A DNA stretch of 64,000 nt from Lingula anatina (Eukaryota; Animalia; Brachiopoda), in the NCBI GenBank assembly GCA_051362555.1, contig CM120640.1, positions 67,372,788 through 67,436,787 on the forward strand, given 5' to 3'. Each line of letters begins with the position of its first letter. Within the stretch, counting starts at the first letter, position 1. This document shows, one piece after another, positions 39,001-51,000 of this stretch. The notes beneath the pieces are model-generated. The model was given only the letters and a program-made list of their open reading frames with translations. It ran no database searches and was not told the DNA's origin. Both the position numbers and the translations under genes were made by a program.

Positions 39001-42000
39001 CTGTTATATACTGTATGTATATATGGCTTAATTATGCAAGTGCTCACTGTATATAATTGCTTTAAATTAACAATTTGATAATTTTCTTGCTTCTTTCTTA
39101 AATTGAAACTATGATTTTTCTATGGAATGGCATCAAATTTCATATTAAGTAATATTGTTTGAACACATCTTTCTCAAAATTAAAAAGATCAGTGCTTTAT
39201 AACCTTTTTAGGCATTAATGAGATAACAGACAGTGGTCACAGGAAAATACTCCAAAGAAAACCATGATTACACATTGATTTCATTTCTGTATAATTTTAT
39301 TTTAAAAATGAGAACATTTTTATAATGGTGGAACTGATCGATGATCAAAAATATCAGAGATTATAGTTGCAGTTATATGAAACAGTGTGTATTTCTTGAT
39401 TATAATTTGACATACATTTTTGTTAAAACCATTCAGTGCCTTGATCAAAAGATTCACTTAGATTTAATGCTATTAAAAGAGTAAAGGTGCTTTTACATGA
39501 TTTCAGATAGTTGTAGCATTTCTGTAGTGATTTGTGATTATTTCTCTCTCTAGGCCTGTGTCAACATCACAGTTCAAAGAGCATGTGGAGAAATACCACA
39601 GAGACTCAGATCTCTTGTTCTCAGATGAGTATAAGGTGAGTTGTAGGGCCAAATTTAGGCAAGTAAAGCAATTTTTAAACTTGAACAGTGCAATGTCTTT
39701 GCTAATGGTATCAAAAGTTTGCTGAATTATTACAGAAGTTAGGTAACAGATTAAGTAATATGTGAGACATTTATCTTGGCTATACTAGTGGTATTGCCTC
39801 CAGTATATGTCAAAGTCTTGCGATCAATAATACAGTGTTTCATCTAACAGTTCCTTATGACTGTATGCAATTTTAATTGACTGGTGAGTCTCGTTGAAAA
39901 TGGTTTTTATTTTAGTAGTAGTATTATTATAATAATTCAAATCAAGCCCTTCCTCACCTCCTAAAACTTGGTGCGAGATAATGTTTTAGAGTCATGTAAG
40001 TTTAACTGAAAAATGTTGTCTTATTTGTAATTTTAAATATCTTTTTTTTTTACCTGTCCCATCACTTTTCCTTAGTTGATCAAATTTCTAAGTCCAAGAT
40101 TTGGCTGTAATGAAGCTATCCATGAGGCCAACAGATGTAAAAACAGATTTACAAATATCCACCCATGTAAGGAAAAAATGGACACATGTAGCTATATATA
40201 TATATATGGAATGTGCATGCTTTGTCCTAAAACCTCCATTACCATTCTAATTTAAAAGTTTTATTTAAATGATAACTTTTTATTTTTATATCATTTACAG
40301 GGTAAGGGTTCATCCATTTTTATCATTTTCATAAGTCTACAAAAAGCATCCTTTTTCCAGGACCTCTCCCCCCTTCATAGAGTACAAAGTGAAAACCTAA
40401 AAATGATGACCTTTGTCAGCAATTTGAATCATCATTTTCAAGTATTTTTCGAAACAGAGGGAATTAACCTCTCTCTAAGGAGTATGGTTTGTAGACTTGT
40501 GAAAGTGAGGATAAAAATGGCTGACATCTTACTGACTTGGATGTATTTTTTAAAACAAATTGCCATTATTGTTGTTTTCAACAATGTATCTATGCAATTC
40601 GAAACAAAATGTTGGCAACCCTTCACTTGAAATATATATGGATTGTAACAACTTATTCACATTTAAATGCTTCCCATTCAGGTTTTATATTGTTTTACCA
40701 TGACAGCAAGCATTCAGCAATATTTAGCTTGAGGAGGAAATGGCATGCTGTATGTGCTCCACCCCATCCCCCACTGCCCTTACTGAAACTGGAATGTCCC
40801 TCAACCCTACAGAAATTTCCTATAGGATGTCCTTTGGGATTCTATGTCACACTATAGGAATCCTATAATACTTTGTAGGACTTCTTTCAGACATTTTAGG
40901 ACTCCTTAATAATTCTGTCGGATTTCCTATAGGATTTCGAGCCTATTTCCTTTAGGGTTCTATAGGACCCTATAGCATTTTGGGCCGATTTTCCTTAGGA
41001 CATACTGTAGGACCCTATAGGAAATTTCTGTAAGGGAAGGAATGGGTCAGTGCTTCTTACATATATAATGCTTACTTGCATGTTCTACAGACTGTTAAGG
41101 AGCTGGCACCTAGTTATGAATGGTTGGAAGCTGAGAAACCCAGCAATCGCTGTAAAAACAGATATACTAATATATTACCATGTAAGTGTATACTAATGTT
41201 GTACTGCCCTCTACTTGTCATTGTGGTTATTGAATGCCTTAATTACTAATGTGTTGCCCTGTGCTTGTCATTGTGTTCTGATATATGATAGTATGCAATT
41301 AAGTATGTTATTGTGTAGGAGTCAGTTAATAATCAATGCTAGTGGTGCTTAACATACAAGTAGAAGTTTTCTGTGTTTGTGATATGTCATGTTCTTCTAA
41401 TGTGTGTTTCTTTGTTGATTTACATTGAAATAATTTTTAGTGACTTATTCTTGTACTTGAGTGATTCAGCTGTCACCCACTTTTCAAAGACAAAAAGTCA
41501 TTTTCAAAATTAACGATGTTATTTTACTGAAGTCAATGTGTTCATGTATGAAATGGTATTTGTGAAGTTAAGTTGTAATGGGTTTGTTGGTAATTTGGAT
41601 TTAGACATTGGAGTAATTTTTATGTACAGACACAGATGTGTCTGTACATATTGCCATCACCTGCGTCTGTCGTCGCCGATGCCGATGGCGATGCCGATGC
41701 CGATGCCGATGCCGTCGCCGTGCACTTTCCTTGTAAACACGATAAGTGGAAGGCAGTTTTACTTTTTGGCTTTATATTTGCAGAGCTGATGAATATTCAT
41801 AAAACGCAGGTCAAGTTCGAAAATCAGCATGATCGGGCCATTATTGTAGAAGTTATGCTGTTTTTTCACTTTTCAGCATATTTTTCACATTTCCTCAGAT
41901 TCAATTCTTAGGCATGTTAACAGTCTCATTATTAAACTAATAAGATACGTAAAAGTTTTTGTTTGACATTTCCTGCATCTTTACAACATTGTTAGTTGAT

Positions 42001-48000: not shown

Positions 48001-51000
48001 ATATATATATACCAGCACGTACATCTGAAGCTATTTCAAATCAAGTCTTCTGTTAATGTTTGTGGACAAAAGGCTTTCCTTACTTGACCCTAGTGACCAT
48101 AAAAAAAACCCACAGAGGTGTCTGCCACTGGTCTTTTTACATTAACTGGCACACTTAGGGATTATCAATGCCAATCTGTTCCACCAATGTTTAAGTGGGC
48201 TTCGGTATTAGCAGACTGAAAAGAATGGTTTTTTACGGTAGCTGCAAACACATAGGACAGAGATACTGATGTTACGGAAACTAATTGCCAATTAAGGCTT
48301 GCCTGCTCAATGTCAAGAGGGAATTAACCTCACAGAATTGAATCTTTGCATTAAAGCAGTCCTTTTGGAGGTAATGATTCCATGTGATACCCCATTGTTT
48401 TGTTTAACTAAAAGGAAATGAATGAGACTAACCTTAGAAGTCTTGTCTGATAGCAGACATGTTATTCAGAGTTACTCAGGGCTGAAGTTCATCAGGTTTT
48501 ATGATTGATTTTAATAAACATCTTTGTTGATATTTACAGAACTCTTACAGCAAACATAAAAACACAAATACAAGGTGGTAACTATCTGCAGATTGGATGT
48601 ACATTAACGCCTGGGGACAGTGTACAAGATCTATGAATTAGTTTTAAACTTGCATCAAAGCAGACATATAGCATTTTGGTAGATGTTGACCAAAATTCAT
48701 ATTAAATGTAATTCATAATCAAATTTCATGTTTAACCGTACACATACTTATTTATTTTCAGTTCTCATGGTGAAATTGTATGTCGCCTTCTTCACATCAT
48801 TTATGCTGTTGCACAAAGCATGTTGCTATACTTACTGTATTTACATGATTGTGATGATATACTAACAGGATTGTTTGCATGCCTTCCCCTATAGGGTAAC
48901 AACACTCGCACTGTCCGCCATTTTAACTTCACGGTGTGGCCAGACTTTGGCTGCCCGGACACTACCAGATCCCTGCTTGAGTTTGTGAAAGTAGTGCGTA
49001 CTCACATCAAGCCAGACATCCAGGGACCCATTTGTGTCCACTGCAGGTAAAGTACTATAATGACATATGCTTTAATGAAACATGATTGTCTTTTTAATTT
49101 TTGCTTGTTTCTTTTGAGCCTTATGGAATGAGCATAATGCCTTGCAATTGTATTGGAACCAATCGATACATTTTTTGCAAATTTTTACTTGTTTACAGTG
49201 TTCTTTGATCTCTCTCTCTCTCTCTCTCTCTCTCTCTCTCTCTCTCTCTCTCTCTCTCTCTCTCTCTCTCTCTCTCTCTCTCTCTCTCTCTCTCTCTCTC
49301 TCTCTCTCTCTCTCTCTCTCTCTCAAAAAGGTAATGATATTTTGGATCCATTTGATGTCATTGACACTGACCGAGTATTCTTTAATGATCTTTCATCTAA
49401 GAGTCATCACAAGGAAAGAAATGACAGATATTTAATATATTGTGGGTTGCGTTAAATTAAGACCATTGAAATTGATACGATTCATTTTTTGTATTGCATT
49501 GTTAATAGCATCCTAATGACTGCTCATTTAAAATGCACATAAGCAAAAAAACTTGATTCAGAGAATAATAGAATTAAGTGCGGATCCACGTCAATCCAAA
49601 GGTGTATCAATTACCAATAACTCCTGCTTATTGAAAATCACAGAAGTGTGGAAGTTCACCTGTGATTGAAATCATTGATGCGTTAGGGGACTAGCTTCCT
49701 GTTATTAGAATGGCGTAAACCAGGCACGTGATCTGGCCAGCCGGGACTCTGGAGAAGAATTAACTAGAAAGTAGAGCCAATTTAGTGTCATGAATTATAC
49801 ATTTGATCTTAATAAGAATGGCTGCTCAAGTCTGCAGTTCAAAGTTATCAAAATATTCAATCCAATAAGAGCTGCTGACAGGAATTTGATGAAGAAAATG
49901 GAAATTGTGGCATTTCAACTGTAAAGTGTATTGTCATTTAAGAAATAAAAATATTTTTGTGTCATTTGGTGCTCATAAGGACATTAAGTCTAAATCCAGG
50001 CTTGGCAATGCAGCAGTAGTCACATAAAAAGTTGGTTGTTATAACATTATTTCAGATTTCTGGATAAATTTTTTTGGGTGAGACACTGCTAATATGCTGC
50101 ATGAATTGTTTCTTGCCATTGTGATTATTTTAACCAAGTATCAGACTTCATCCATGCACATAAAACACAGTTGATAGTATTTTATCAAGCTCTTTGTTCA
50201 TATATTATCATGATATTAAGGAATGTTGTACGCCTTAAGATCTGATTAAGTAAATTTAGTTAATGTGAAAGTGCAGTCTATCTTTGCAGCATGCACGCAG
50301 GCATGTGTGTGTGTGCTTTGAAGTGTTTGGGTTTCATAGATGCCAAAAGGTACAGCACTAAATCCATAAGAAGCAATTGCTTTCATGTATTGAAAGTCGA
50401 TTATTGAAATGTGATGCTCAGTTCAGAGGACTTGATATCAATCCATATATTATTTCCCTCTTGCATCACCCATTGATATATCAGTTCTACAAGGCTTGCA
50501 CTCCCAAGGTTAATTCTTGCTCATTCAATATCCGGCCTGTAATTAATAACGTGGCTTTTGAGGTTTATTTGAATATACCTATTATGTCTCGAAAAGCGGT
50601 TATTCCATTGGGTCTTTTTTCTAGCAATCAGACATAATAGACACTTATCCGAGAAACAGGTCAGAAAGTGTTCCGTAAGGGAGCTGAATAAGTGTATTGG
50701 TTCCTGTTTAAACTGATAAATGATCTTCATGATTGGGTTAAATGGATGGAAGATATTGGCTCATAGTAATTCAACAGGGCAGTGATTTTTTTTCTTTTTC
50801 CCCCTCTCTTTTTCATTCTATTTTTAAAGATCTGGAATATCTTGTTATTACCAAGTAATACTGTTTTGGTTATAGTTATTGACAGTTAAAGTGGTCATCC
50901 TGAATATATCTACTAATCTGTGTAAGAGAAATCTTACCATGATTTACGAGTTAAAGACTCATTTTTTGTTCAAATTAAAAAAAGGTTATTTCTTACAGTA

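Follow-up and report, generated by a model that had tools for sequence, protein, structure and literature searches.

A likely Rbfox-controlled exchange of active-site loop exons in an R3-type receptor tyrosine phosphatase gene of the brachiopod Lingula anatina

A 64,000-nucleotide (nt) stretch of the Lingula anatina genome (assembly GCA_051362555.1, contig CM120640.1, forward-strand positions 67,372,788 to 67,436,787; hereafter the window, whose first letter is position 1) carries a receptor tyrosine phosphatase gene on its + strand in which two exons of the phosphatase domain are each present in two alternative copies, 1a/1b and 2a/2b. These are mutually exclusive exon pairs, of which one copy or the other is used, and the Rbfox motif TGCATG is placed non-randomly around them, downstream of each a exon and immediately upstream of each b exon. 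Sequence comparison indicates that the Rbfox-type layout of pair 2 is conserved in orthologous introns. Rbfox control of both pairs is likely and co-switching of the two pairs is probable. On balance we favour a reading in which Rbfox promotes the a exons and interferes with the acceptors of the b exons, such that in Rbfox-active cells both pairs would move towards 1a+2a and the default form would likely be 1b+2b.

Two mutually exclusive exon pairs

The exons concerned are listed below.

39554..39635, + strand: constitutive exon upstream of pair 1; AG/GT ends, ending ...DEYK in phase 0, matching RefSeq model P0003
40076..40166, + strand: exon 1a, 91 nt, KNRF substrate-recognition loop; AG/GT ends, exon-1 profile match E=9e-9
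41091..41181, + strand: exon 1b, 91 nt, KNRY; AG/GT ends, in all three RefSeq models, read depth in RNA run X7
44475..44551, + strand: constitutive exon c1; boundaries and RefSeq match
44911..45045, + strand: constitutive exon c2; RefSeq match, c2-to-c3 joint in 4/4 RNA runs
45238..45360, + strand: constitutive exon c3, upstream of pair 2 and shared by both its exons; joints to 2a and 2b
45603..45757, + strand: exon 2a, 155 nt, WPDH loop up to the catalytic Cys; AG/GT ends, joints, RefSeq isoforms X1 and X3
48895..49046, + strand: exon 2b, 152 nt, WPDF loop up to the catalytic Cys; AG/GT ends, joints, RefSeq isoform X2
51165..51300, + strand: constitutive exon c4, remaining P-loop (SAGVGRTG); boundaries and RefSeq match

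The initial annotation had proposed that both pairs were genuine alternative exons, which was borne out by their AG/GT ends, reading frame, RNA joints, read depth and RefSeq models. Of 16 possible inclusion combinations, the open frame and the P-loop were kept in only four, each with a single choice at both pairs, while the other 12 stop early; the constitutive exon sequence between the two pairs totals 335 nt. No transcript joining an a exon to its b counterpart was present among the 15 joints listed from the RNA data, beside which the table had 61 further rows, and a search of the window gave no third copy of exon 1 or exon 2. Exons 1a and 1b are identical at 15 of 30 residues. Exon 1a was absent from all three RefSeq models (P0001-P0003), gave no match when used alone in a PDB search, and scored 32.5 bits against the exon-1 profile, compared with 54.5 bits for 1b, which is itself part of that profile. 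The acceptor of exon 2a is weak, with a pyrimidine fraction of 0.47.

Two small AG/GT-bounded candidate exons were also noted after 2a (window 46499-46539 and 46683-46718), for which there was no joint among those listed in the RNA data. Splicing of 2a to these would truncate the protein soon after the catalytic Cys, with loss of the remaining P-loop. One C. virginica model (P0300) likewise ends directly after an a-type exon.

Placement of TGCATG around the alternative exons

The motif sites in this region are as follows.

40214..40219, + strand: TGCATG, predicted 1a enhancer, 48 nt past the 1a donor
41077..41082, + strand: TGCATG, predicted 1b silencer, 14 nt before the 1b acceptor, in the pyrimidine tract
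45188..45193, + strand: TGCATG, a counter-example, 50 nt before constitutive exon c3
45779..46104, + strand: four TGCATG (45779, 46027, 46089, 46099), predicted 2a enhancers, 22, 270, 332 and 342 nt past the 2a donor
48876..48881, + strand: TGCATG, predicted 2b silencer, 19 nt before the 2b acceptor

All eight TGCATG starts cited in the initial annotation were recovered on the + strand at their exact coordinates, and its claim that the motif is missing from the opposite positions also held, the 300 nt upstream of 1a and of 2a and the 400 nt downstream of 1b and of 2b all being free of it. The site at 48876 sits between a branch-point-like CTAAC word (-33) and the AG of 2b. The motif lay within about 50 nt of 4/4 alternative exons compared with 2/30 constitutive exons (Fisher p=3.2e-4) and within 25 nt of the acceptor in 2/2 b exons compared with 0/30 (p=0.002); the boundaries of the 30 constitutive exons were refined automatically and a few may be off. 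When 55/30-nt windows were used, TGCATG was the sole hexamer common to all four flanks in any of the 16 up/down placements. For comparison, among 20,000 random quartets of constitutive exons some hexamer was common in 3.9% of draws, and one that was not of low complexity in 0.03%.

The intron between 1a and 1b also contains inverted-repeat elements at 40302-40532 and 40805-41035, the latter with 22-nt arms (95%) and ending about 40 nt upstream of the 1b TGCATG.

Exon use in RNA sequencing runs

Nine raw RNA runs were listed for the same species, and four of them (X1, X2, X4 and X7) were analyzed, with 5-25% of each being read. Use of exons 1a, 2a and 2b was established from junction reads and that of 1b from bin depth and RefSeq. 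The table of joints was crowded by the interspersed repeat at 41600-44330, so that pair 1 was read from 326-nt depth bins, in which dips in depth are not treated as findings, and a single row of joints.

Joints from c3 to 2a and to 2b numbered 2/2 in run X1, 9/0 in X4, 4/21 in X7 and 0/5 in X2, and the choice at pair 2 differed between runs X4 and X7 (Fisher p=1.4e-5). In run X4 the joint from the upstream constitutive exon to 1a was observed in 17 reads with 13 different starts and the 1b bin had zero depth; these reads confirm exon 1a in spite of its absence from RefSeq. Run X4 is essentially 1a+2a. Run X7, in which 743 aligned bases fell in the 1b bin and 170 in the 1a bin, is mostly 1b+2b.

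The pair 2 layout in orthologous introns

A scan of metagenomes gave 31 loci, comprising eight intron-bearing orthologues with tandem copies of exon 2, two intronless loci (L001, L008) and 21 that were more distant. The eight orthologous loci were reduced to five distinct sets (L003, L004, L005, L009 and L010). In the tree L003 and L004 fall together with Watersipora (100/98), as do the exons of L005; L009 and L010 are members of the clade with no closer placement.

TGCATG was present in the 80 nt that follow exon a in 4/5 loci and in the 35 nt that precede the next exon-2 copy in 4/5 (at -18, -25, -29 and -21, compared with -19 in Lingula). The opposite positions carried it in 0/5 loci and the flanks of constitutive exons in 0/16 (p=8e-4 for each position). 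The pooled pair-2 introns contained 16 TGCATG in 2,451 nt compared with 11 in 26,052 nt elsewhere, approximately a 15-fold difference, with three on the reverse strand. The exact hexamer recurs in 5/6 loci at each position, and 14/15 intron pairs among the loci align no better than shuffled sequence. Variants of the motif were also seen: L009 has only GCATG, at +107 after exon a, and in L006, a near-identical copy of L005, GCATG replaces the hexamer at +72. Motif traces in the translated intron flanks of short database open reading frames were uninformative.

Motif conservation, named as a check in the initial annotation, thus stands for pair 2, while for pair 1 there is no second copy in L009. 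L004 has one copy of exon 1, and in L009 the single exon 1 lies between introns of 113 and 171 nt that carry no motif. No TGCATG preceded the single orthologous exon 1 in L009 or in L004, where about 100 nt upstream were covered. At L002:2707-2852, L003:1706-1851 and L009:6798-6952 the WPD exon has a third copy, in the middle position, whose loop is degenerate (WED, WLD) but whose splice sites and frame are intact; the acceptor TGCATG lies ahead of this copy.

These introns also bear on whether the choice could be set by competing RNA pairings, with a docking site and selector sequences, in place of a protein. Some inverted repeats do occur in both inter-exon introns of the Lingula gene. No listed inverted repeat, however, pairs a common site with two acceptors, and the orthologous introns have no alignable common block, so we consider RNA pairing extremely unlikely as the basis of the choice.

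Gene family and age of the two pairs

The gene has FN3 exons, a transmembrane exon (36100-36199) and a single PTP domain. An FN3-repeat ectodomain and one membrane helix are present (PF00041 and PF18861 match on P0001), and a single HCS motif, 77 residues before the C-terminus, indicates one cytoplasmic PTP domain. This organization, together with an intact WPD aspartate, is common to the R3 phosphatases (Ptp10D, PTPRB/J/H/O/Q), and by sequence the gene belongs to the R3-type receptor tyrosine phosphatases. RefSeq protein XP_013387209.1 ('PTP eta isoform X2, Lingula anatina') is 100% identical to exon 2b. Identity to RefSeq is mostly 90-100% in the 3' part of the gene and just 65-76% in several FN3 exons (window 400-31800), which may reflect divergent haplotypes, another Lingula lineage or a rapidly evolving ectodomain.

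The initial homologue search was dominated by two-domain LAR-type proteins. Constitutive PTP regions placed the gene (95/87) with bivalve, chiton, Owenia and bryozoan proteins. Assignment as the Ptp10D orthologue was rejected, as the gene lies outside the 100/98 branch which holds Ptp10D and the deuterostome R3 proteins, and in the same tree Lingula Ptp10D is a separate protein (P0221). The gene belongs to a second lophotrochozoan/protostome R3 clade beside Ptp10D. The R3 survey in PMC5336234, in the part of its text available to us, has a single protostome R3 type, from which the Lingula gene differs in standing apart from Ptp10D and in its duplicated WPD exon; the words 'splicing', 'mollus' and 'Lingula' do not occur in the main text of that survey.

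Ten isoform clusters of the clade were examined, one of them with 15 of its 17 members listed, and two WPD exons were found in seven. Swaps of the WPD exon were found in Mya, Saccostrea, C. virginica (two clusters), Mizuhopecten and Watersipora, while Magallana is represented by a tandem read-through model. In tandem models the a-type exon comes first, as in Lingula. An exon-1 swap was found in 0/10 of these clusters, and pair 1 was seen in the Lingula gene only. As a control, 0/9 Ptp10D clusters (Mytilus with 15 of 27 members listed) swap either exon. A Lineus longissimus gene of the Ptp10D clade (P0159, P0252) has its own duplication of the WPD exon (100/99), an indication that alternative splicing of this exon has evolved by convergence.

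When Lingula and four bivalves were compared, the sum of a-a and b-b scores exceeded the crossed scores in 10/10 cross-species comparisons. On the exon-2 tree the a and b labels need two changes each, where shuffled labels need about 7.6 and 0/500 shuffles were as low. An a clade was retained in topology tests (p-AU 0.42), as was a duplication in Lingula only (p-AU 0.08). These trees rest on 50 residues and are weak, and they favour but do not prove a single ancient origin of pair 2, which we consider likely. By these comparisons pair 2, the WPD loop, appears as an old switch of the gene clade, and pair 1 likely arose later, by duplication within the Lingula line, and gained the same motif code. 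We tentatively extend this to a wider history, which is possible though far from assured: the lophotrochozoan R3 clade would have kept an Rbfox-controlled WPD-loop switch since before brachiopods, bryozoans and molluscs split, and in the Lingula line the exon for substrate recognition would then have been duplicated and have acquired the same code, such that one factor swaps both walls of the active site and one gene gives two enzymes.

Probable coordination of the two pairs

A number of observations weigh against, or qualify, a coordinated switch of both pairs by Rbfox. Within the window as a whole TGCATG is not enriched (44 on both strands compared with 50.2 +/- 7.4 expected), and the window sizes used for its placement were set post hoc, as were those for the orthologues, after listing. 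The site at 45188, raised as a caveat in the initial annotation, is real and precedes the constitutive exon c3; no TGCATG was found within 120 nt before c3 in L003, L004, L009 or L010. Three of the five orthologous loci are bryozoan-like and therefore not fully independent. The acceptor motif of L005 is at about -90, in L003 and L009 it precedes the degenerate middle copy and not a b-type exon, and in L004 and L005 there are motifs downstream of b as well. Orthologues also switch exon 2 without any swap of exon 1.

The RNA data contain further difficulties. RefSeq models XP_013387208-210, which are unphased, combine 1b with 2a in isoforms X1 and X3 and 1b with 2b in X2. In run X2, which had five joints from c3 to 2b and none to 2a, 1b depth was zero and the 1a bin (0.94) was within the intronic background of 0 to 1.33; with about five reads this is a weak hint of 1a+2b. 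Run X1 was evenly divided at pair 2, with zero depth on the exon upstream of pair 1. Runs X4 and X7 stem from separate studies, and X7 carries fixed differences from the window in its exons; the comparison between the two runs could therefore be confounded by population or stage.

Some of these points would also fit a pattern of motifs that arose by chance, with differences between runs due to genotype or noise and with 1a as a decaying duplicate. The lack of window-wide enrichment, the post hoc windows, the genetic divergence of run X7, the poorer profile score of 1a and its absence from RefSeq are all in keeping with this. We nevertheless judge chance to be very improbable, and for pair 2 largely refuted, given the 15-fold, strand-biased enrichment in orthologous introns that cannot be aligned; 1a is moreover the form spliced in run X4, with its frame and splice sites intact.

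A looser linkage of the pairs has to be taken more seriously, although we regard it as unlikely. Rbfox would be involved, but each pair would have its own partners or threshold, and 1b+2a and 1a+2b would be real cell-type isoforms, as in unc-32 of C. elegans, whose sets of exons are described as 'independently regulated' in the available part of PMC3585155. The 1b+2a RefSeq models, the pattern in run X2, the four downstream sites at pair 2 compared with one at pair 1, and the orthologues in which exon 2 is switched with a single exon 1 would all be explained. On the other side, run X4 uses a almost exclusively at either pair, and X7 has minor a fractions of similar size at the two pairs, approximately 19% of bin depth for pair 1 and, for pair 2, 16% of joints or 31% by depth; the RefSeq models are unphased and the signal in X2 is a matter of few reads. 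The coordinated switch proposed in the initial annotation is thus partly supported by the a+a use in X4 and the mostly b+b use in X7, but not in its strict two-isoform form, in view of the 1b+2a models and the hint from X2.

Proposed mechanism and effect on the enzyme

Rbfox usually enhances inclusion of an exon when bound downstream and represses it when bound upstream (PMC11874969, as far as its available text goes). For the coordinated switch, we propose that Rbfox would bind UGCAUG within the pyrimidine tract of each b exon and so block its acceptor, while Rbfox at the sites after each a exon would help the weaker a splice sites. Frame-shift decay may then clear products with double or null inclusion. 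The pairs would be coupled through the shared factor and not by a physical link, which would give a bias that allows some mixed molecules. Binding, direction of effect, decay and coupling are all four inferred.

The direction could be the reverse, or another factor could read these motifs, in which case high Rbfox would not give the a forms. The positional rule holds 'usually' and not always in the portion of PMC11874969 that we could consult, and the working site in unc-32 is placed downstream of the second exon in the corresponding portion of PMC3585155. A protein bound to the pyrimidine tract at a distance of 14 to 29 nt from the AG would, however, most simply block the acceptor, the exact hexamer is kept in 5/6 loci at each position, and the weak 2a acceptor is as expected of an enhancer-dependent exon; we therefore consider a reversed direction or a different factor improbable. 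The assignment of the a forms to neurons and muscle in the initial annotation is unsafe, because nematode Rbfox is broadly expressed and tissue specificity comes from its partners, according to the part of PMC3585155 at hand.

Exon 2 corresponds to residues 167-215 of PTP1B, from the WPD loop to the catalytic Cys. The KNRx position of exon 1 is, we assume, the equivalent of PTP1B Tyr46. Both Tyr46 and Phe182 of PTP1B sit at the substrate pocket (PMC9266911, text available in part). The WPD Asp and the Cys of HCSAGxGR are intact in all four single-choice combinations, so that the effect is likely a tuning of substrate choice or rate and not an on/off switch. KNRF or WPDF as the mark of an inactive form was considered and rejected, since KNRF with WPDF is the norm throughout Ptp10D orthologues. 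WPDH in turn is the norm in LAR and in vertebrate R3 proteins, and because these forms are norms in related phosphatases all four products are likely to be active.

Comparison with known systems

Known receptor phosphatase splice variants mostly involve changes to the ectodomain or to mini-exons; in this gene the active-site loops themselves are exchanged by splicing. Rbfox-controlled mutually exclusive pairs, and two sets of them in one gene, are already known, and what is notable here is the exchange of active-site loops and the motif layout across phyla. The nearest parallel is unc-32, with exons 4a-c and 7a-b, which likewise has two mutually exclusive sets in one gene and in which RBFOX, through intronic UGCAUG, favours the upstream exon of one set. 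It differs in having UNC-75 as the shared regulator, an RBFOX site after 7b and independent regulation of the sets (all from the available part of PMC3585155), whereas the Lingula gene has the same Rbfox layout on both sets, both in one catalytic domain. FGFR2 IIIb/IIIc and egl-15 5A/5B, as described in that same part of PMC3585155, share an Rbfox-dependent mutually exclusive choice in a signalling receptor, but they swap the ligand-binding ectodomain through one pair, with ESRP or SUP-12 as partners, while in Lingula the loops are intracellular and belong to the active site.

Both WPD-exon forms are already present in automatic models, namely XP_013387208-210 and the bivalve and bryozoan isoform sets, but the Lingula models lack exon 1a and are silent on regulation and conservation. 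In a search of open-access papers we found no description of this gene, clade or switch and no study of the Rbfox positional code in Lophotrochozoa. A pair-2 layout kept between phyla whose introns cannot be aligned is good comparative evidence that this code works in Lophotrochozoa, and pair 1 provides a natural experiment on how an existing splicing programme comes to include an exon that has newly been duplicated. The analysis also reveals a second protostome R3 clade beside Ptp10D and an exon absent from RefSeq.

Other features of the window

A juxtamembrane cassette exon at 36361-36445 encodes 28 residues that are absent from RefSeq isoform X3. The sequence at 26850-28280, in an intron of the FN3 region, is a tandem repeat with long open frames. 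Between the two pairs, 41600-44330 is a composite interspersed repeat with heavy coverage by RNA reads that originate at other loci, and similar sequence recurs near 4400-9300, 32800-34400 and 51300-53100, in several introns.

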